The notes beneath the pieces were generated by a model. The model saw only the letters and a list, made by a program, of their open reading frames with translations, was not told where the DNA came from and did not search any database. From a virus (taxonomy: Duplodnaviria > Heunggongvirae > Uroviricota > Caudoviricetes), in IMG/VR virus record IMGVR_UViG_2571042445_000002: 64,000 bases of DNA; one strand, written 5' to 3'. Made by a program: the position numbers and the translations under genes. Positions within the stretch are counted from its first letter, which is position 1; the number at the start of each line of letters is the position of its first letter. This document shows positions 18,318-60,662 of this stretch, in pieces.

Positions 18318-18350
18318 ATGTTAGAAAATTAAATTGATGTTTCTAATCAA
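18318..18350. promoter_or_regulatory. operator-like motif pair
   Basis: ATGTTAGAAAATTAAA plus partial inverted copy TTTCTAA. Confidence 0.45.
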
Positions 18351-18539
18351 GAATGTATGATTTATATCGTCACTAAAAAACAGCATCTGATAAAAATTCT
18401 GTTGATCTTTCTAATGTTCAGGCTTATATTCATGCCGTCGTAGCAAATTCTGCGACCGGGTTTAGCAGCCTGAATGTTAGTGCGGACAACCGCAGATATC
18501 CGATATTGCGGTATTTTTGTGTCCGTAAAACCGCGTTAC

Positions 18540-18677
18540 GCCCAAATTATGGTGGGGCGTGATGGGGAGGCTTCGGCCTGCTGGTTTCACTAACGCCAGT
18601 CTGCTAACCCCGTCACGTCCTGCCACCTGTTTAGCAGCGGGTAGCAGGTTGTTAAACCTGTTAGTGAGGCCGTAACT
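18540..18677 (+). ncRNA. candidate c4-like antisense RNA / structured leader
   Basis: hairpins (e.g. gaggc-UUCG-gcctg) in the leader just upstream of icd-like gene. Confidence 0.25.
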
Positions 18678-31172: not shown

Positions 31173-31206
31173 GTATTAGAAAATTAAAATTGTTTTTCTA
31201 ACATAT
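31173..31206. promoter_or_regulatory. operator-like inverted pair
   Basis: TGTATTAGAAAATTAA and inverted TTTTTCTAACATA at the entry to the ncRNA/tRNA island. Confidence 0.5.
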
Positions 31207-32515: not shown

Positions 32516-32591
32516 TGATGGTGTAGCTCAGTGGTAGAGCAGTTGGCTGTTAACCAACTGGTCGGTGGTTCGAATCCACTCACCATCGCCA
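32516..32591 (+). tRNA. tRNA-Asn (anticodon GTT)
   Basis: 76 nt; acceptor gatggtg/caccatc, anticodon loop CTGTTAA, T-loop TTCGAAT, 3' CCA encoded. Confidence 0.85.
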
Positions 32592-32593
32592 AT

Positions 32594-32669
32594 GCCGGTT
32601 TAGCTCAGTTGGTAGAGCGCCTGCCTTGTAAGCAGGATGTCAGCGGTTCGAGTCCGTTAACCGGCACCA
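32594..32669 (+). tRNA. tRNA-Thr (anticodon TGT)
   Basis: 76 nt, 2 nt after tRNA-Asn; anticodon loop CTTGTAA; T-loop TTCGAGT; CCA encoded. Confidence 0.85.
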
Positions 32670-32671
32670 AC

Positions 32672-32760
32672 ACAACAGGTAAGGGTATTTTGCGACGTCG
32701 GAGATCGCCGAGCTTGGCAGAGGGTTCGAATCCCTACGAAGTACCCTTACCGTTGTGATG
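32672..32760 (+). ncRNA. tRNA-like hairpin element or pseudo-tRNA
   Basis: 15-bp stem acaacaggtaagggta/tacccttaccgttgt enclosing a T-arm-like GGTTCGAATCC; no full cloverleaf. Confidence 0.3.
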
Positions 32761-32857
32761 AATGCACAGGCTGATGTGCCGCAACTACAGTAGTGCGCGC
32801 TTTGCGGGGCTTGCTACAACCCTGTGTCGGAGTTCAGCACCGACCATCACAATCACT

Positions 32858-32944
32858 GGAGAGTAGGGAGCATGGTGCTCAAGCGGTCTTGAAAACCGTC
32901 CCATTGCGCAAGCGATGATGGTTCGATTCCATTACTCTCCGCCA
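32858..32944 (+). tRNA. tRNA-Ser-like (anticodon TGA), long variable arm, atypical D-arm
   Basis: acceptor ggagagt/actctcc, anticodon loop CTTGAAA, long variable arm, T-loop TTCGATT, CCA encoded. Confidence 0.5.
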
Positions 32945-33200
32945 GCGCAACGTTAAGAGTATTTGGCTAATTAAGCGAATGCCGGAAGCAGAACCGGATC
33001 ACCAAATGCTCTTACCATTGCGGTGAATGCGGCTAAGCGCACGCGGAACAGTTAAAACAGTAAAGGTGGTCTTTTTACTGGCGTAACGAGAATCCATAAG
33101 TGATCCGGCGTTAATTGTTAACTGGTTAACGTCACCGGGAGGCACCCGGCACCGCAACCTAACAGCAATGGCGTTTTGTCTTAAAAGGTGGCTGCAAGTG

Positions 33201-33329
33201 ATGGATTTTTGGGCGTTTGCCGATAAAAACCCGGAGTGGACATTATTGTTTCTGCTGGTGGTTGCATACGGGGTAGAGCAAGCGGCAAAAGCCTTACGCG
33301 GTTCTGGCAAAAAGCGTAAGCGTAATTAA
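33201..33329 (+). CDS. small membrane peptide (42 aa)
   Basis: ATG ORF MDFWAFADKNPEWTLLFLLVVAYGVEQAAKALRGSGKKRKRN, one TM helix plus basic tail; below the ORF-track size cutoff. Confidence 0.25.
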   Translation: MDFWAFADKNPEWTLLFLLVVAYGVEQAAKALRGSGKKRKRN

Positions 33330-33338
33330 CAGTAATCT

Positions 33339-33414
33339 GGCCCTTTAGCTCAGTGGTTAGAGCGGGCGACTCATAATCGCACGGTCACCGGTTCAAGTCC
33401 GGTAGGGGCCACCA
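33339..33414 (+). tRNA. tRNA-Ile2 (anticodon CAT, lysidine type)
   Basis: 76 nt, nearly identical over D-arm and anticodon arm to E. coli tRNA-Ile2 as I recall it; CCA encoded. Confidence 0.8.
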
Positions 33415-38228: not shown

Positions 38229-39266
38229 TTACCAGAGTTTTGCCGCGTACATCGTTTGTGTGAATGTGTACCCATAGCGTTCTTCAACGCTTTTACCGTA
38301 TTTTTTCCTGGCTTCAGTAAGGCGGATGCCTGTCAGGTCATCGCCGGAGGCAATCATAACTTCCAGTAGTTCCAGGTCCATTTTATCCAGCCTTGCCATT
38401 GCATCTTTAGCCTCTTGAATTTTCCGGCTAACGATCTGGTGTATGGCTGGATCGGCTTCGGCCAGCATTTTATCTGATTTGTTTTTTAAACTCTGATTGC
38501 GGATATCAATGTTTCTCAGGATATATGACTTCACGACGTAGCTTGGCTGCTGCTTTTCCAGATCACGAACCCGATAAAGGTCAAATTCGCCGAGAAGTCC
38601 GCACGGAAGCGGTTTAATGCCAGTGTAAATGGTAAGGGTGCGGCGCTCACCAACGTTGTTAACAACGGGAATCTCTGTGTTTGCTTTTTTTGCAAAGATC
38701 AGCGCACCGTGCGTACCCACTCTGAAGCGTGAAAGTCCATTGTTGCCCTCAATATTGGTGGTAATCACCACATCGGTATAACCTTCTTTTCTTGCGCGGT
38801 ATACCTCGCCCTCACGTTCAGCGGCGAAGAATCTGCGTTCTTCTTCAAGCGCACCGACAACCTGTGAAAATATCCTGTTTTTCATGCTTTTCTTTATAGT
38901 TTTATCGTATTTTTTCAACAGGTCTTCGCGCGTAAATGTTCTCGTTGTGGTTGCGCTTTGCATAACGATATGCGTACTCTGATTAGTATCCTCAACAATG
39001 AATGGGATCGGTAAATAAACCGACTCAACAATGTTTGAGGCTTTGTCATCATCCTTGCGACACAGATCAACAAAGGCTTTCCATTCGGCTATGCATTTTT
39101 CAGCTTCTTCTAATACAGCCGGATCATGTGTTAATGCAACATGGCGAAATTCCTCGCCAACATAACTGGTATCATGGAAAACAGAGTTTGCGACCACCAG
39201 CTCTTTCCACCGTTCAGCGGTTTGCAGGAACCGTTTGTACTCATTCTCGATCGACTTCTTACTCAT
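38229..39266 (-). CDS. candidate master repressor (C1 position); function unproven
   Basis: 345 aa from the internal Met (MSKKSIENEY); convergent with pacB as P1 c1 is; operator motifs in its own 5' region. Confidence 0.3.
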   Translation of the reverse strand: MSKKSIENEYKRFLQTAERWKELVVANSVFHDTSYVGEEFRHVALTHDPAVLEEAEKCIAEWKAFVDLCRKDDDKASNIVESVYLPIPFIVEDTNQSTHIVMQSATTTRTFTREDLLKKYDKTIKKSMKNRIFSQVVGALEEERRFFAAEREGEVYRARKEGYTDVVITTNIEGNNGLSRFRVGTHGALIFAKKANTEIPVVNNVGERRTLTIYTGIKPLPCGLLGEFDLYRVRDLEKQQPSYVVKSYILRNIDIRNQSLKNKSDKMLAEADPAIHQIVSRKIQEAKDAMARLDKMDLELLEVMIASGDDLTGIRLTEARKKYGKSVEERYGYTFTQTMYAAKLW

Positions 39267-39279
39267 TATTCCTACTCGA

Positions 39280-39296
39280 TTTAGTTTTCTAACATA
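39280..39296. promoter_or_regulatory. operator-like motif in the candidate repressor promoter
   Basis: TTTAGTTTTCTAACATA about 15 bp upstream of the proposed start. Confidence 0.5.
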
Positions 39297-39462: not shown

Positions 39463-39496
39463 CTAACTTTAAATAATTGGCATTATTTAAAGTTAG
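39463..39496. other. lox-like recombination site (13-8-13)
   Basis: CTAACTTTAAATA-ATTGGCAT-TATTTAAAGTTAG; perfect 13-bp inverted arms, asymmetric 8-bp spacer, 150 bp upstream of the Cre-like gene. Confidence 0.65.
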
Positions 39497-39647: not shown

Positions 39648-40676
39648 ATGGGTGAACTAGTTATCTCCGGCGGTTCTGGTGGTTTTCTGCGCGATATTGG
39701 CACCGAATACCAGGAAGCTGCAAAAAACTTTATGCAGTTCATGAACGACCAGGGAGCTTATGCCCCAAATACACTTCGTGATCTCCGTCTGGTGTTTCAT
39801 TCCTGGGCGCGGTGGTGTAACTCGCGCCAGCGCCCCTGGTTCCCGATTACGCCGGAAATGGCCCGCGAGTATCTTCTCCAGTTGCATGAGGCCGATCTGG
39901 CTTCGACCACCATTGATAAGCACTATGCCATGCTTAACATGCTGCTTTCGCAATGTGGCCTCCCGCCGCTGTCGGACGATAAAAGTGTGTCTCTGGCCAT
40001 GCGGCGCATCCGGCGCGAAGCGGCAACGGAAAAAGGCGAGCGAACAGGCCAGGCTATACCGTTGCGGTGGGATGATCTGAAATTGCTCGACGTGTTGCTG
40101 TCCCGTTCCGAGCGGCTGGTGGACCTGCGCAATCGGGCGTTTCTCTTCGTGGCATACAATACCCTGATGCGTATGTCAGAAATCTCGCGCATCCGCGTCG
40201 GAGATCTGGACCAAACAGGTGACACTGTAACGCTGCATATTTCACACACGAAGACCATCACGACCGCCGCCGGACTTGATAAGGTGCTTTCTCGTTACAC
40301 TACCGCCGTACTGAACGACTGGCTGGAGGTGTCCGGACTTCGAGAACATCCGGACGCGGTGCTATTCCCGCCAATACACCGCAGTAATAAGGCCAGAATC
40401 ACGACAACGCCCCTTACTGCACCTGCAATGGAGAAAATATTCAGCGATGCCTGGGGGTTGCTGAACAAACGAGATGCCACGCCGAACAAGGGAAGATACC
40501 GGACGTGGACAGGCCATAGTGCGCGTGTTGGTGCGGCAATTGATATGGCTGAGAAACAGGTGTCAATGGTCGAGATCATGCAGGAAGGCACATGGAAAAA
40601 GCCCGAAACACTTATGCGATATTTGCGCCGTAGCGGGGCATCCGTTGGTGCAAATAGTCGCCTGATGGATTCATAA
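39648..40676 (+). CDS. cre: Cre-family tyrosine recombinase
   Basis: 342 aa; aligns along its length to P1 Cre as I recall it, including NTLMRMSEISRIRVGDL, WTGHSARVGAAIDMA, GTW and MRYLR (catalytic Arg, His-x-x-Arg, Trp, Tyr). Confidence 0.8.
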   Translation: MGELVISGGSGGFLRDIGTEYQEAAKNFMQFMNDQGAYAPNTLRDLRLVFHSWARWCNSRQRPWFPITPEMAREYLLQLHEADLASTTIDKHYAMLNMLLSQCGLPPLSDDKSVSLAMRRIRREAATEKGERTGQAIPLRWDDLKLLDVLLSRSERLVDLRNRAFLFVAYNTLMRMSEISRIRVGDLDQTGDTVTLHISHTKTITTAAGLDKVLSRYTTAVLNDWLEVSGLREHPDAVLFPPIHRSNKARITTTPLTAPAMEKIFSDAWGLLNKRDATPNKGRYRTWTGHSARVGAAIDMAEKQVSMVEIMQEGTWKKPETLMRYLRRSGASVGANSRLMDS

Positions 40677-53292: not shown

Positions 53293-54009
53293 TTACGACT
53301 GCCCTCCCTTCACCTGCTTTAGCGTCAGATTTCCGCAAAAAACCGCACCAGTGTCTATGTAGTGCTGGTTCCAGAAAGATTTCGGGCTGCTTACTGGCGT
53401 ATGCCCGAAAATAAAGCTATCTGCACCAGTGATCATTCCACCAACACCATCAACCGCGTCATAAAATCGCTCACGCCGCCAGGTAACATTGAGATCGCTA
53501 ACAGGTTTACCAAACTGGTATTCGTTATCAGGATAGTCGGCATGGGCTATAACGATAGTTTCATGCCCGGTGTTCAACTCAATGATATAGGGCAAACGTC
53601 TTACCAGCTCCACCAGCGCCCTGGCTAATATTTCCCGATCAGCGTCCAGCATGAAGAACCATTGACCACCATTCATTAGCCAGTTATTCACGTTGCCTGC
53701 GGGACTTAACGCATCGATCATTAATCGCTCGTGGTTTCCCATAACCGACCGAAACCAGGGCATCTGCAATAGCTCCAGGCATTCAACATTTTCGGTGCCG
53801 CGATCGATAAGGTCGCCAACCGATATCAGTAAATCCTGTGTCGGGTCAAAGTCCACACGATGAAGTTCAGACATCAATCTGGTGTAGCAACCATGCAGAT
53901 CACCAACAACCCATATGTTTCTGTAGCCTGAACCATCAATACGGGTATATAAATTCACTTCATGCAGCGCCTGGGTCATGCGGCAACCTTCTCCCGCAGC
54001 CAGATACAA
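53293..54009 (-). CDS. Ser/Thr protein phosphatase (PPP-family metallophosphatase)
   Basis: 238 aa; motifs [20 protein letters not shown]. Confidence 0.7.
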
Positions 54010-54287
54010 ACCGGGCCATCTTCAGTGTCATGAATAGAGCCAACAAACCATCCTTCGCCCTCTGGTCGCTCTGGTTCCCAGGCGGCAATATCGGGACCAT
54101 CTGCGTCCAGATTAAAATGATCTTCATCCATACTGCGAATAGTCCACTGAAGATTATTTTCCTTCATCCAGGCGTCAAATTCCTCAGTGGATATATATTC
54201 ACGACCTGCGCAAAACTTTTCATACTCCGGATGTGTCCAGCAGCCATATTCATCACGTTCTACCGGCATTTCTTTAATGATGCTCAC
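53976..54287 (-). CDS. hypothetical protein
   Basis: 103-aa acidic ORF. Confidence 0.3.
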
Positions 54288-54508
54288 TCTTCATCCTCCA
54301 AGTCGGCAACGGCCTCCATCACATCAGAACCGCGAATAACCTCAAAAGCACGGCAGGCCATTTCAAACACCTGTTGTTCTTGCGGATGCGGTGACTCCCA
54401 ATACTTAAAACCAGGTCGATGCTCGTAACCCAACATGGAATAAAAATCGCCAGCAAGTTCAATCGCGGCATCAACAAGTTCGCGATTTGTCATCGTCTGT
54501 TCTGTCAT
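54284..54508 (-). CDS. hypothetical protein
   Basis: 74-aa acidic ORF, coupled. Confidence 0.3.
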   Translation of the reverse strand: MTEQTMTNRELVDAAIELAGDFYSMLGYEHRPGFKYWESPHPQEQQVFEMACRAFEVIRGSDVMEAVADLEDEE

Positions 54509-54780
54509 TTTGTTTTCTCCTGTCTGAACATCACTATCATCAGGTCGCCTTTTGTCGCTATCCTGGCTGTTGTACCTGGTTCAATGCGGCTAAGCTCAAA
54601 TGCGTCATAGAACGCTTCTAATGCCTTCTGGCGTAGTTCCTGTTTGCGCCGTTTTTTCCACTGTTTCAGGAAAATGGAACCCAGCCAACGCCATGTACGG
54701 GACATGATGTAAAGCCAACCGAGAAGTGCCAGACCGGTATTTAGGAGCGTATCGATCGTTATTGTCGTGTCGATATTCAC
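54505..54780 (-). CDS. small membrane protein
   Basis: 91 aa, N-terminal TM helix then basic region. Confidence 0.3.
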   Translation of the reverse strand: MNIDTTITIDTLLNTGLALLGWLYIMSRTWRWLGSIFLKQWKKRRKQELRQKALEAFYDAFELSRIEPGTTARIATKGDLMIVMFRQEKTK

Positions 54781-55460
54781 TGGCTGCCTCCTTTGCGAAG
54801 CTGTTCAGCAATACTTACGCATATCTCTGCGCCTCTAATCAGCCCCGGAACGTTCTTGTTTGGCCCAACTTCACCATCGACAAAATCAATCATCGCGTTA
54901 CGAGCCATATCCACGCCCTGCGCACGTACTTCAGCCAGGAAAGCATCGGTGGCTGGCGTTTCCCGTGAACGGTAAGACCAAACAATGTCGTCTGTTTCAC
55001 TGGGTTCTTCATGAGAGCAATTTGGGCAGACAGCAGTACAACCAGCATGATCTTCTATGAGCATCTTCAGCCACGAGTTCTCCTCCGCCAGCGTCACGCG
55101 ACTGGCCTCCAGTTCTGCTACGCGCTGTTTTGCAGCATCCAGTTCAATCGACAATTTTTCCAACTGCTCTTTATGCTTTTTATATTCCTGATATGCGTGC
55201 CAAGACTGACCTTTGCGCACACTATCCGTGATATCAGTAATCTGTTCTGGTGTTAGCGTGGTCAGTGGCTGTGCTGGGAAAATCAGCACTTTCCCGGCAT
55301 CCCAATCAAAACCCACCTGAATTGACTGAACCTCAACTGATGGTGTTGAACCGATGCGACCAGGCGAATGAACAACGATCGTTACATCCATATCGCGACG
55401 ATGGCTGTGGTTGTTGGACAAAATACGATTCACCAACTCCGAGAATTTGGAAAATTTCAT
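54777..55460 (-). CDS. Ea22-like coiled-coil protein
   Basis: start at internal Met (MKFSKFSEL) overlapping upstream stop (ATGA); C-terminal half aligns with the paralogue at 56270-56944. Confidence 0.4.
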
Positions 55461-55813
55461 GCTGATTCCCTTTGCTCTTCCTGGATAATGTTGTTGCAAT
55501 CTTTCACGCACTCGTTGCAGATGAAAACGTTGTCCCCGGCAATTAACTTTTTAACGGTGTGCTGGGATTTGTTGCAGAAGCTGCAATAAAGCGTTGGACT
55601 GGCTGATACGGATGGTGCGCCAGATGTCAGCCGCGCGATGTCGTTCTTGCGACGCAATATCACACGGCTGCACTCGACCAGCATCTCCGGGGATATATCC
55701 TCCTCCGTGGCGAGCGCCTCCAGACGTTCGAGCAAGCGAAATACTTTTTCCTGGGTGATTGCAGAATGCGATGTGGTCATCTCACTCTCCTTTGAGGCGA
55801 ATGCCTGTTGCAA
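55457..55813 (-). CDS. small protein with C-terminal ClpX-type zinc-binding domain
   Basis: 118 aa; [39 protein letters not shown] closely matches the ClpX N-terminal C4 zinc-binding domain as I recall it. Confidence 0.55.
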
Positions 55814-56273
55814 TGCTGTTTATGATGCTGTCAGTGCATGGGGTAGAAAGCTGGGCATCTCCAGCAATTTTCATGACCTCAACATCTGCATATCGAATAC
55901 CGAGGTGTATCAGACCGGCTATGCCTGACTTAAGCCGAGCATTTTCCATAAATAGAACCTTTGCCCGCTGTTTTTCTGCTTCAAGCTCAACACGCAGTTT
56001 CCCTACCGTAAGCGCAATATCCTCGTTCTCCTGGTCGCGGCGTTTTATGTATTGCTGGTTTCTTTCCCGTTCATCCAGTAGTGCCAAAGCAACCTTTGGA
56101 TTAAAGGCAGCAATAAATTCAGCGTTGTTTTTCAGAACGTGTTGCGCAATGGCCTGACTACTTAGTCGGACCTCATAACCACGTGTGCCACGGTGTGGTT
56201 TATATGAGTCCCAGTCTCCCCACGTTGCTTTTTCTGCCGCTTCACGCAGTGCCTGATAGTCAATCTTGCTCAC
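55782..56273 (-). CDS. Ead/Ea22-like prophage early protein (paralogue family)
   Basis: 163 aa; 5' about 200 nt near-identical to 50700-50907. Confidence 0.4.
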
Positions 56274-56944
56274 TGGTTGCCTCCTTTGCGAAGCTGGGCA
56301 GCGAACCTATCAGCTGCATCCGCGCAAGCAGAAGCAACGGAATCAAAAAATGGATCATCTCCTGTATCGCGCATCGTCAAAGCGAATGCCTCCACCCCTT
56401 GTGCCTGTATTTCTACAAGGGATGCCTTAGATGTAGTGCTTTTCGCCTCGCCTAATTCGTTATGAGCGATGTTCGCTATACATGCGATGTCTATATCTGG
56501 ATGATTAATTGGGCAATGGCTAAGAATTGCCTCAAGTGCTGCTTTTTTGCTTTGGCATTCCGCCACCAGCGCCCCGCAATTGCTTTCCAGCTCTGCAATA
56601 CACTTTTTAGCGGCCTCCAGCTCAACACGCAGATTCTCAAGCGTTAGAGCCTTCTCCACGTTCTCGTCCAGCAGTTCAATCACATCAGGATCGCTACCAT
56701 CAACTACTGATATGCGCGAATTTTTGTAATGCTCGTCAGCATAAGTTCGTCCAGTTTTGAAGCATCCGTCATCCTCCATGCCGGAACAGGCATAAACAAC
56801 ATGTGATCCAGATATGCGCTGCATTGACATTTCCTCGCCACAAACAGGGCATTTAGGCGCTGGTTTCGGTGAATAACGTTCACGTAACGGATAGTAAAGC
56901 TCGATCTCCGCCAGTTGCTCTGGCGTTAAACCTTCAGACTTCAT
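56270..56944 (-). CDS. Ea22-like coiled-coil protein
   Basis: 224 aa; C-terminus ends with the same AEQLRKGG(S/N)Q motif as the 54777 gene. Confidence 0.4.
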   Translation of the reverse strand: MKSEGLTPEQLAEIELYYPLRERYSPKPAPKCPVCGEEMSMQRISGSHVVYACSGMEDDGCFKTGRTYADEHYKNSRISVVDGSDPDVIELLDENVEKALTLENLRVELEAAKKCIAELESNCGALVAECQSKKAALEAILSHCPINHPDIDIACIANIAHNELGEAKSTTSKASLVEIQAQGVEAFALTMRDTGDDPFFDSVASACADAADRFAAQLRKGGNQ

Positions 56945-57251
56945 GTACTCTCCTTTCGAAATAAACGTACTGATTAATCATTCCCAGGGGCATTTCGAGT
57001 TTTTCTGCGATCTCACGGCGGGGAACACCACACTGATGAAGCTGCCGCGCCAGTTCTATATCGCTCTGCCGGTATTTGGCTGACTGGTGAAAGTCTCCTT
57101 TCAGAATCATGCTGATCCGCAGTTGCCGCGCTTTAGTCCTGACAGCACCACCGGTACGCCCGATCAGTCTCCCAATACCCTCGACTGTCATAGTCCCGGC
57201 GCACTGGCGGAGTATCATGATTTCTGCCCTTCCCCATCCCCGCCAGCTCAC
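56934..57251 (-). CDS. HTH-containing small regulatory protein (putative)
   Basis: 105 aa with HTH-like segment GVPRREIAEKLEMP. Confidence 0.3.
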   Translation of the reverse strand: MSWRGWGRAEIMILRQCAGTMTVEGIGRLIGRTGGAVRTKARQLRISMILKGDFHQSAKYRQSDIELARQLHQCGVPRREIAEKLEMPLGMINQYVYFERRVHEV

Positions 57252-57886
57252 GCAGAACTCCTTCTAACCAAAAGAACGCCATCTTCAGAAACAATGTTGC
57301 AGGACTTCAGGTAATTCATTGCCACTTTCGGTAATGGATTCTTTGGATCGGCGTTTGCCAGGGATTTCGATAACCTCAAGATAAATTTGATCATTACCTT
57401 CTGACGGAGCTTGTGCTCATGAGATGCAGACAGGTAATAGGAAATGGTATGGGCTAAACGCTCACGAAGCTGTTCTGTGCCGTGATATACAGCAGCGATA
57501 TCACGCAGTGCATTGACCAGTTCCCGGTAAATATGCGGAGCAACCTGGCATTCAATGTTGGTTGGTGACTCATAAATTACATTCAGCCCCAGCTTTTGAG
57601 CCAGCTCGTGCTCTGCACGAGCGCCAACTGATTCCTCCCACCCCTTGAGCAAATAGACCGCATTAGCCGAACGCAACATTGCAAGGCAAATATCCATGTA
57701 TTCACTCTGGCAGAGGCCAGCAGGTAACAGCGCCGGATTCAGAACAATATGCCCTACCTCCATCAGCTCTTTTGCTTTCGAAAAAAACGCTGTGCGGTTG
57801 TAGTCGGGATAACCAGTCATCGGACCCGCGATGTAAATTTTCATAATGCGTTTTGACATCAAAGTTTCCCCAGGAACGTTACGCAA
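57248..57886 (-). CDS. DUF4406-like (nucleoside deoxyribosyltransferase-fold) protein
   Basis: 212 aa; N-terminal YIAGPMTG...VLNP...LKGWEESVGARAEHE matches the DUF4406 pattern. Confidence 0.4.
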   Translation of the reverse strand: MRNVPGETLMSKRIMKIYIAGPMTGYPDYNRTAFFSKAKELMEVGHIVLNPALLPAGLCQSEYMDICLAMLRSANAVYLLKGWEESVGARAEHELAQKLGLNVIYESPTNIECQVAPHIYRELVNALRDIAAVYHGTEQLRERLAHTISYYLSASHEHKLRQKVMIKFILRLSKSLANADPKNPLPKVAMNYLKSCNIVSEDGVLLVRRSSA

Positions 57887-58053
57887 AAGTTGATGAGAGC
57901 AAAGAGTTCAATGCCCAGCTCAAACAACGCCAGGACAGTGAAAAACAGGGCATATAGCAACCCAATTTCTGTACCGGATTGCTGGTGGATTGCACTTATT
58001 GCGACAAGCATCATGACCTCCTGATATAGCGTCTGAAAAAAAAGTATCTTCAT
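57859..58053 (-). CDS. small membrane protein
   Basis: 64 aa, two hydrophobic helices. Confidence 0.25.
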   Translation of the reverse strand: MKILFFQTLYQEVMMLVAISAIHQQSGTEIGLLYALFFTVLALFELGIELFALINFCVTFLGKL

Positions 58054-58055
58054 TT

Positions 58056-58089
58056 TGTGTTAGAAAATCAATTTTGATTTTCTAACACA
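58056..58089. promoter_or_regulatory. perfect palindromic operator
   Basis: TGTGTTAGAAAATCAATTTTGATTTTCTAACACA between divergent genes. Confidence 0.6.
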
Positions 58090-58132
58090 TTTGATCAACC
58101 ATAGCGGCGATGTAGACAAACCGGGTATTTCT

Positions 58133-58708
58133 ATGAAGCAAAGCTATTGGGAGAAACAGACACAAAAAGCCCTGCAAAAACTGGCTGATCCGAAATGGCG
58201 GGAGGAACAAAGGGCAAAGCGTCTTCAGCAAGCTCAACGCCAGCAGCAGCGTGCGCGAGAAAAAGCCGCATCGCCTGAATATCGGCAAAAGAAAATTGAA
58301 AAAGCGAAGCAATATGAACAGCGAAGAAAAGAGAAGGCCGCTTCTGCTCCTGTCAAAAAAACTCGCGCGTCACGCGGCCTGAAAGGCAGAACACTCACAG
58401 CAGATGAGCGCCGGATACAAACTGCCATCGGTGCTCTCCCCTGCATTGCCTGCCATATGCACGGACAGCATAGCCCTGTGGTATCCCTGCACCACATCTT
58501 CGGGAGAACAGCAGAGAACGCGCATAAATACGTCCTCCCTTTGTGTAAATGGCACCATCAACACGCAGCGCCAGCAGAGATCCGCGAGCAATACCCCTGG
58601 TTGGTTCCTGTTCATGCTGATGGAAAAATAGGCGGCAAAGCAGATTTCAGGCGGCACAATGCTGATGAAATGACGTTGTATCAGATGGTGACTGAATTAA
58701 TAAATTAA
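58133..58708 (+). CDS. HNH-type nuclease, Ref-like (putative)
   Basis: basic Q/R/K-rich N-terminus then Cys/His core LPCIACHMHG...LHHIFGR...CKWHHQH; ATG at 58133 chosen because the upstream TTG abuts the operator. Confidence 0.4.
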   Translation: MKQSYWEKQTQKALQKLADPKWREEQRAKRLQQAQRQQQRAREKAASPEYRQKKIEKAKQYEQRRKEKAASAPVKKTRASRGLKGRTLTADERRIQTAIGALPCIACHMHGQHSPVVSLHHIFGRTAENAHKYVLPLCKWHHQHAAPAEIREQYPWLVPVHADGKIGGKADFRRHNADEMTLYQMVTELIN

Positions 58709-58720
58709 TTTTCTAACATT
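58703..58720. promoter_or_regulatory. operator-like motif
   Basis: AATTAATTTTCTAACATT overlapping the ref-like stop. Confidence 0.5.
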
Positions 58721-59369
58721 TTAAGTTGAATTGTGAGATTCGCCGTTGTACATTCACAACCGATTGGTACACCGGTCAACTTTTTGAGACAAACCGTTTG
58801 GTTTTTCGTATGATTGCCGCCGCCATACCAATGGCGGTGCAATATAGGTGGCTGAAAAGCCCCCGTTGACTCACGGTGTTCCAACCTTTATTGCGCCGCC
58901 ACCAGACCGTGGAACAGTCGATGGCGGCTCCGAAAGCAAGGAGTCACTACACTATGAACAGCTACTGTCTTTTCCCATCACTCGTTGTCCGCCACTCACG
59001 CGATAATCTGCATTCTTTACTCGCGCTGGGGGTGTCAAAATGACCGTTCGCTACCTCAACTTTCAAATCCAGAACATCACTGGCGGTTGCTATGACTGGT
59101 TTGTCACTCTCGGAAAAGAAGTGATCACCGGAAAGCTGGATGAAGTGAAAGCTAAAGCAATGGCCTACGCCTGCAAGCAAGCCCAAAAGAAGAAAAGAAA
59201 AGCATAAGAAAACACACAGTTGCGCCCTGGCATTATCGTGGGGTATATTTCTACGGCACCTTAGAAAAACGGGTGCCGGGATTGGAACCCCGGATAATGT
59301 CAAAGGCGACACAGACGCCGAACGCGTCTTTTTTTGTGTCATGCCATCGCACAGCCATACTTAGCGTTT

Positions 59370-59520
59370 AGCTCAGAGATCAATGGTAGTGCTGGCTGGG
59401 CTGCCGAAAGGCAGGCCGGTTCCCTTTGACGCCGGTAGTTCCAACCCAGTCAGTGCTACCGCCATTGAGATTGGAACCTCACGCGGTAGCTCCTTAACTT
59501 AGTCAAAGGAGGCTGCCAAT
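59370..59520 (+). ncRNA. candidate c4-like antisense RNA / structured leader (copy 2)
   Basis: hairpins (ctgcc-GAAA-ggcag) upstream of the second icd-like gene. Confidence 0.25.
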
Positions 59521-59736
59521 ATGGCTACTATCCCTACCCCAACTCATTCTGAATTTATCTGGCGTTTCTATTCCTGCCAAAAACACCTGTATATCTGCGT
59601 CATGGCTGCAACCGAAGCAGAAGCGCGCTCATACCTTCCCGAAGAACCCTGCATTTTTGCTGCTCGCTTCACTCTTGATGCGATGGAGATCCTCAATTAC
59701 TGGAATCTGCCAATGAACTGCGTGGAGGTGCACTGA
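59521..59736 (+). CDS. Icd-like small protein (copy 2)
   Basis: 71 aa, shares SEFIWRF...CQKH...AATEAEAR with the copy at 18678; stop overlaps ant start. Confidence 0.4.
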   Translation: MATIPTPTHSEFIWRFYSCQKHLYICVMAATEAEARSYLPEEPCIFAARFTLDAMEILNYWNLPMNCVEVH

Positions 59737-60662
59737 TGAATCTGTCCATCTCTCAAAAAGCGACAATGACCAGTATTGAGATCGCGGAGCTGGTGGGTAA
59801 GCGTCCTGACAACGTTAAACGCACCATTGAACACCTGGCGGAACGGGGCGTAATAACTTTTCCTCAAATTGAGGAAAAGCCCACTGCAGGCCGCCCGGCG
59901 AGCTATTACGTCTTCGAAGGCGAACAAGGCAAGCGCGATAGTATTATCGTCGTCGCGCAGCTCTCTCCCGAATTCACCGCCCGGCTGGTGGACCGCTGGC
60001 GCGAACTGGAGAATGCCAGAGGACCGTTAAAATCAAAAGCCGAAATTCTGGCCGAAATGGCGCAAATGCATCTTGAGCATGAACGCCGGATCAACGCCGT
60101 TAATACCCAGGTAGCCGAAGTATCGGCACAAGTGACCAAAGTCGCTGAAACCGTCGAGCAAATAAAGAAAGGCAATATTCCGGAAGGCTACATTGGCTAT
60201 CGCCAGTTAGCGGCGAAATGCGGCCTGACTGAAGCCAAATGCCGCAACCTGGTCAACGCTTACCGGATCCCCACAGATACGCATGAGTTTTTAACTCCCG
60301 ATGGTTTGCTTGCGAGACGCTCCATTGTGGCCCTGGCCCCCTTCCGGAAAGCCTTTAAGCAGGTTATGTCGGAGGCTGAACCACGCAACAAACGCTGGTA
60401 TCATCCCAGGATGGGGCTATTTCAGGCCATTCACCATCCTGTGCCTGAAAGTCCAAAGGCAAACCTGTCGTTGCATACCGCCAGAGAGAAGATTAAAACA
60501 GGGTATGCAACCGTATGCCGTCGAGCATCCTGGCCTGAAAGTGTCTGGGTATGGCCCGAAAGAGGCTCACGGAAAAACTGGCGCACCTTTCGCGACGGCA
60601 AGATCTGTGCGATTGATTTACAGCCAGAAGATGTAGCAGCGACCGACTGGATTGTTAGTTAA
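59736..60662 (+). CDS. ant: antirepressor, Rha-family (fused form)
   Basis: 308 aa; N-terminal MTSIEIAELVGKRPDNVKRTIE; about 100-bp stretches identical to copy 1. Confidence 0.6.
   Translation: MNLSISQKATMTSIEIAELVGKRPDNVKRTIEHLAERGVITFPQIEEKPTAGRPASYYVFEGEQGKRDSIIVVAQLSPEFTARLVDRWRELENARGPLKSKAEILAEMAQMHLEHERRINAVNTQVAEVSAQVTKVAETVEQIKKGNIPEGYIGYRQLAAKCGLTEAKCRNLVNAYRIPTDTHEFLTPDGLLARRSIVALAPFRKAFKQVMSEAEPRNKRWYHPRMGLFQAIHHPVPESPKANLSLHTAREKIKTGYATVCRRASWPESVWVWPERGSRKNWRTFRDGKICAIDLQPEDVAATDWIVS

Follow-up and report, generated by a model that had tools for sequence, protein, structure and literature searches.

A Ref-family nuclease gene in a D6-like plasmid prophage, with a putative bivalent C1-type operator between it and a divergent operon

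The 64-kb stretch of DNA analysed here (hereafter, the window) carries ref, a gene for a Ref-family nuclease. It is an ordinary copy of the phage P1-type Ref gene, of a kind already known and already annotated. We consider it very probable that this is a D6-like ref gene preceded by a bivalent operator of the D6-type C1 repressor, through which both ref and a divergent leftward operon are controlled. The sole mildly new points are the sequence and geometry of the D6-type operator and the two alleles in which it occurs at ref. The principal features, in coordinates of the window, are the following.

58133 to 58708, plus strand: ref, encoding a 191-aa Ref-family HNH nuclease, presumed RecA-dependent, assigned from Pfam, PDB and alignment with the D6 and P1 proteins
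58056 to 58089, no strand: putative bivalent operator, two inverted motif copies (TGTGTTAGAAAATCAA) with a 2-nt gap, in the interval that separates ref from the divergent leftward operon
58074 to 58102, plus strand: candidate ref promoter, found by eye, with a -35 TTGATT at 58074-58079 (right arm of the operator), a 17-nt spacer and a weak -10 AACCAT at 58097-58102
58043 to 58071, minus strand: candidate leftward promoter, found by eye, with a -35 TTGATT at 58071-58066 (left arm), a 17-nt spacer and a -10 GATACT at 58048-58043
58705 to 58718, minus strand: putative single operator site, TGTTAGAAAATTAA with 0 mismatches, overlapping the ref stop codon at 58706-58708
57859 to 58014, minus strand: first gene of the divergent operon, preceded by an AGGAGG ribosome-binding site at 58022-58017 and encoding a small, hydrophobic product of about 51 aa; the D6 counterpart is orf88
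53293 to 57886, minus strand: rest of the leftward cluster, lambdoid-like accessory genes identified from open reading frames, Pfam, and D6 and plasmid annotations
53231 to 53244: motif site after the leftward cluster
38232 to 39266, minus strand: c1, whose product presumably acts in trans on the motif as a repressor; the D6 record annotates c1 (immC)
39281 to 39294: putative operator site, 15 nt upstream of the c1 start

The window is, on alignment, a D6-like plasmid prophage of E. coli. Escherichia phage D6 (NC_050154) is 90.4% identical to it over positions 57000-60000 and collinear with the entire window in reversed orientation. D6 is a P1-related plasmid prophage, and the element in the window is a distant relative of P1. 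The ref region matches 456 plasmid records, chiefly from E. coli and Salmonella, with a top match at 98.9% identity, and in the matching plasmid records the gene is labelled "Ref family recombination enhancement nuclease." Three tRNA genes also lie in the window at 32517-33411 on the plus strand (Rfam tRNA, 67-75 bits), in a region corresponding to the D6 tRNA cluster.

The neighbours of ref differ from those in P1, where the gene lies between c8 and mat; here it is flanked by a lambdoid-like accessory operon and an immI-like region. The leftward gene string starts at about 58014 and extends to 53293. A family search with the product of its first gene, 57859-58014, returned no match. The remainder of the cluster encodes a DUF4406 protein (Pfam E = 9e-35), a small HTH protein, ead/Ea22-like proteins, a ClpX-type zinc-finger protein and others, and ends in a ppp-like metallophosphoesterase gene. 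The D6 record describes the counterparts of these genes as similar to genes of N15, ES18, mEp213, phiV10 and 933W, which bears out the claim, made in a sequence-only reading of this DNA, that the palindrome upstream of ref faces a divergent lambdoid-like cluster.

An inverted-repeat search resolved that palindrome into two arms, 58056-58071 and 58074-58089, each of 16 nt and 100% complementary to the other, around a central TT of 2 nt. It is the longest palindrome within the 64-kb window. Among 100 first-order Markov sequences of window composition, searched with a gap of at most 4, the longest arm reached 11 nt, against 16 nt here. The element had been described as a perfect 34-bp palindrome; the 34-bp span and the perfect 16-nt arms stand, but the central TT is not self-complementary, and the palindrome (16+2+16) is thus near-perfect rather than perfect. 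The second-longest palindrome in the window, 39463-39496 (CTAACTTTAAATAATTGGCATTATTTAAAGTTAG), has 15-nt arms and a 4-nt spacer, is flanked by c1 and the gene for a Cre-like recombinase (39648-40676), and corresponds to the rox site of the Dre recombinase in the D6 annotation.

Both arms of the palindrome upstream of ref are copies of TGTTAGAAAATTAA, a dispersed motif whose consensus with flanks reads TRTGTTAGAAAATTAAWWT. The motif occurs at 15 sites in the window at up to 2 mismatches, compared with 0.55 expected (about 27-fold enrichment), a count that 0 of 100 shuffles reach, and the earlier proposal that the palindrome is built of an operator motif agrees with this distribution. Most of the sites are single and asymmetric. 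Further inverted pairs occur at 31174/31190 and 34823/34839, where the 14-mer cores stand 16 nt apart, as they do at ref. In D6 the motif has 16 sites, of which 14 fall between annotated genes; these intergenic sites include the following, given by D6 position.

Upstream of a gene: c1 (199, at a distance of 15 nt), lpa (4632), pmgS (10318), repL (22467), ref (76633), pdcB (80725) and, as an inverted pair, hrdC-dmt (64116/64132)
Flanked on both sides: 21263, by repL and the second icd/ant module; 72198, by mat and simB
After dre: 89948

Motif statistics and placement together make the reading of the palindrome as an operator well supported. Its centre reads AATCAA TT TTGATT, which places two TTGATT hexamers back to back, each a plausible -35 box, and from these hexamers we infer both promoters. 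The candidate ref promoter scores 7/12 and has a poor -10 (3/6) that reads AATCAT in D6-type relatives. The candidate leftward promoter scores 8/12, and its AGTATC is kept in all seven of the window-type IMG/VR loci described below. A sigma-70 promoter scan with a threshold of 9/12 reported nothing at the palindrome. Elsewhere in the window, at a second immI module, a good promoter (TTGATG-16-TATGAT) lies directly next to the motif site at 18319, and this lends support to the operator/promoter arrangement proposed at ref.

The overall pattern resembles that of the C1 operators of P1, in that sites of about 17 bp are scattered at early promoters and at c1, either singly or as inverted pairs. 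Of the C1 operators in the P1 record, Oref is monovalent and sits within promoter P2ref, with the -35 on one side and the -10 on the other, and Omat extends over the stop codon of ref; in P1 and in the window alike, a repressor operator precedes ref and another overlaps its stop codon. The operator sequences themselves differ: the P1 consensus ATTGCTCTAATAAATTT and the window motif TRTGTTAGAAAATTAAW agree at about 9 of 15 aligned positions at best, and the window motif, when tested for fit to the P1 consensus, did not fit. As far as these alignments tell, the window motif is of a different specificity class from the P1 operator, which fits a divergent repressor. The bivalent geometry also differs, since the 17-mers at ref abut over 34 bp, whereas P1 Oc1ab, the bivalent operator at c1 in the P1 record, spans 28 bp with two 17-mers overlapping by 6. 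The pairs at 31174/31190 and 34823/34839 share the 34-bp abutting geometry, not the P1 overlap.

The C1 protein of the window is 80% identical to D6 C1 and 21% identical to P1 C1 (E = 1e-7). Against the NCBIfam model phage_rep_C1 it scores 24 bits (E = 1.8e-5) where the equivalog cut-off is 500, and we thus regard it as a distant relative of that family rather than an equivalog. Because of the low identity to P1 C1 and the departure of the motif from the P1 consensus, it is the placement of the sites that connects C1 with the motif; from this placement, and by analogy with P1, we infer that the D6-type C1 repressor uses the motif as its operator. A full-text literature search, whose reach did not extend to the D6 genome paper (Gilcrease & Casjens 2018), found no description of D6 operators.

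The placement-based nature of this link leaves some room for a regulator other than C1, for example the small HTH protein encoded at 56934-57251 on the minus strand, acting as a Cro-like or early-gene regulator on the motif and the palindrome. The 105-aa product of that open reading frame has a weak sigma-70 region 4/HTH match. P1 C1 is reported to bind asymmetric 17-bp sites, and a symmetric palindrome would fit a dimeric HTH protein better than it fits P1 C1. However, most motif sites are single and asymmetric, and one of them lies 15 nt from the c1 start codon. Other sites lie upstream of homologs of c1, ref, lpa and repL; in P1, the genes c1, ref, lpa and kilA-repL are reportedly C1-controlled. 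The motif can, moreover, be aligned to the P1 operator in the partial manner described above. We therefore regard control by a non-C1 regulator as unlikely.

Under the preferred reading, control by C1, the palindrome at 58056-58089 would comprise two inverted 17-bp sites for the D6-type repressor encoded at 38232-39266. In a lysogen, C1 bound to the palindrome would cover both back-to-back -35 hexamers, and ref on the right and the lambdoid-like accessory operon on the left would both be off. Upon inactivation of C1, both would be transcribed: the rightward TTGATT-17-AACCAT would drive ref, and the leftward TTGATT-17-GATACT would drive the open reading frame at 57859-58014 and the accessory genes down to 53293. 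C1 binding, the promoter positions and the timing of expression are all predicted in this model, as is the repression of ref and of the divergent leftward operon. The expression of ref is probably tied to the prophage repressor.

The protein that this operator would control passes every available sequence test for a Ref-family nuclease. Its reading frame is open on the plus strand from 58091 (TTG) to 58708. The ATG at 58133 is the likely start and agrees with the annotated starts in D6 and related plasmids; the start coordinate given in the sequence-only reading, 58056, marks the left end of the palindrome rather than of the gene. Residues 89-190 match Pfam PF16786 (RecA_dep_nuc) with 123.3 bits (E = 5e-36; gathering cut-off, 26.9 bits) over positions 2-102 of the 103-position profile, and residues 27-189 align with residues 10-181 of PDB chain 3PLW_A, which is P1 Ref (E = 3e-52). 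An NCBIfam search with the protein returned no match, though RefSeq names the protein, and its identity is settled by Pfam and PDB. D6 orf87 (YP_009914764), annotated as "Ref-like RecA filament endonuclease," is 92% identical and is the ortholog of the window gene; the two share their neighbours, the upstream left half-site and the stop-codon site. Identity to P1 Ref, the alignment suggested as a check, is 56% overall and, by P1 domain, 71/107 (66%) in the nuclease domain and 26/67 (about 39%) in the N-terminal region.

P1 Ref and the window protein have the same layout, with a basic N-terminal DNA-binding tail followed by an HNH/Zn nuclease domain. The active-site Zn of P1 Ref is coordinated by three histidines, H134 and H153 among them, and the double change H134A/H153A destroys nuclease activity (PMC4713147). 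H134 and H153 align with H142 and H161 of the window protein. The remaining seven His of the P1 nuclease domain are all kept there as well, together with three of its four Cys, C122 alone being lost; among the residues retained are C96, C99, H102, H112, H113, H123, C130, H133 and H136. The DNA-binding part of P1 Ref is its N-terminal 76 aa, with 25 K/R (PMC4330346). The corresponding region of the window protein is about 81 aa, roughly 5 residues longer than that of P1, and contains 26 K/R and 9 D/E, followed by a Cys/His-rich C-terminal core. P1 C11, which lies in this region and accounts for incidental dimerisation, is not kept (A28 instead). The Ref-like HNH nuclease, the highly basic N terminus and the Cys/His core that had been proposed from the letters of this DNA are thus all borne out, through the profile and structure matches, the retained active-site histidines, the annotation of the D6 ortholog and the residue counts.

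Homology with P1 Ref suggests DNA binding by the basic N-terminal tail, and nicking by the C-terminal HNH/Zn domain only where RecA filaments are bound; the RecA dependence of the window protein is predicted on the same analogy. Such nicking would boost the SOS response and recombination following DNA damage or in the course of lytic growth. In P1, C1 represses ref, and the gene is induced and expressed in the lytic cycle; it lowers lysogenisation 40-fold and enhances the SOS response and ciprofloxacin killing, with lethality raised in lysogens (PMC4713147). Our best guess is that the window protein has the same role as P1 Ref in SOS and recombination, including the ciprofloxacin effect. Gp16 of Staphylococcus phage PhiNM1 is likewise a phage-encoded, early-expressed nuclease reported to be RecA-dependent (PMC12817073), from a different host and phage group.

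A Ref homolog by descent whose function has drifted, toward mainly DNA binding, inhibition of cell division or RecA-independent nuclease activity, is very unlikely. The modest N-terminal identity to P1 Ref would be compatible with such drift, and the SOS induction and filamentation caused by P1 Ref are partly independent of its nuclease activity (PMC4713147). However, the nuclease domain is far better conserved, with all metal-binding residues kept, and we retain the reading of the window protein as a Ref nuclease.

We assessed the conservation of the palindrome upstream of ref in D6, in three related plasmids and across IMG/VR. In D6 and the three plasmids, the left arm is invariant and the right arm reads TTGAATATCTAAY; the D6 ref upstream region thus carries another allele, with a degenerate right arm (TTGAATATCTAAT) and different flanks. 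The start codon context differs as well (MQKQ... in D6, MKQ... in the window). Our IMG/VR scan used a pattern anchored on the left arm and on TTGATCAA, with the 19 nt between them unconstrained, and these two anchors are consequently conserved by construction in the loci recovered. The scan identified 24 phage loci, of which 7 have the window-type right arm (TTGATTTTCTAAC), 15 the D6 type and 2 an intermediate form. Within the right arm, TTTTGA and TCTAA are invariant in 24/24 loci. The flanks of the palindrome differ between the two alleles while the core is conserved. The palindrome element is therefore conserved, and its full symmetry is not universal. The D6-type right arm, the allele of most relatives, has 4 mismatches to the 14-mer, and because it is degenerate in most relatives, bivalency may not be essential. 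As a tentative and rather doubtful extension, the D6 lineage may have a C1 operator with a specificity and bivalent geometry other than those of P1, and the ref alleles could set different levels of repression of ref and the leftward operon.

A scan of genome contigs with the ref-upstream pattern returned five matches, and four of them were rejected as chance matches in unrelated bacteria. The fifth, JAFAFN010000164.1 (3228 bp, "MAG: Actinomycetes bacterium"), contains a D6-type ref upstream region identical to other D6-type loci over the extracted 130 nt, and very probably reflects contamination by an E. coli phage-plasmid or an error of binning.

We give next to no credence to the palindrome being a product of chance or a purely structural element, such as a hairpin, without a regulatory role: in favour of this stand the AT-richness of the region and the lack of a consensus promoter at the palindrome, but its arms exceed those of the random sequences, its motif is strongly enriched in the window, and its core is conserved between alleles with different flanks. 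It was likewise rejected as a terminator, since it has neither a G+C-rich stem nor a T-run and sits between two divergent gene starts rather than gene ends, and as a recombination site, since it is unlike the rox site at 39463-39496 and lies between gene starts.

The reading of the palindrome as an operator extends to the site at the other end of ref. This third site, over the ref stop codon, is kept in D6 and the three plasmids, and it probably governs the next unit downstream, the immI-like region. That region comprises a C4 RNA at 59379-59466, then icd, then a gene (ant) for a Rha-type antirepressor.

Several further elements were observed in and around the immI-like regions. A terminator-like hairpin with a T-run, kept in relatives, lies at 58762-58777 on the plus strand, 54 nt past the ref stop codon and between an operator plus candidate promoter (58705-58754) and the next promoter-like site; it is a candidate ref terminator or immI-leader attenuator. 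The promoter-like sequence GAGACA-17-TATGAT (58786-58814) precedes a second element resembling C4 antisense RNA at 58827-58906 on the plus strand, between ref and the canonical a1b1/C4, which scores 42.3 bits (E = 1.4e-6), just under the Rfam gathering score of 45. This element is identical in D6 and the three plasmids save for one position, and a 281-nt stretch aligned around it is 96% conserved, above neighbouring coding DNA. Just upstream of the C4 RNA at 59379-59466, a 61.3-bit match to isrK, an Hfq-binding sRNA, at 59243-59334 on the plus strand overlaps with a weak match to c4-a1b1 targets; the isrK match may simply be the immI leader/target region of the D6-like phage group. A second complete immI-like module occupies 18319-18630 on the plus strand: after its putative operator site (18319-18332) come c4-a1b1 targets (18424-18476) and a C4 RNA (18545-18630, 70 bits), and beyond the module lies another icd/ant pair, like orf19/orf18 of D6.

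An intact Ref nuclease gene is thus present in D6-like phage-plasmids, elements common to many isolates listed under E. coli and Salmonella. Beyond the correct annotation of this gene, the finding is of little consequence, but the catalogue of operator sites could aid the prediction of the early regulon and of immunity groups in D6-like plasmids.
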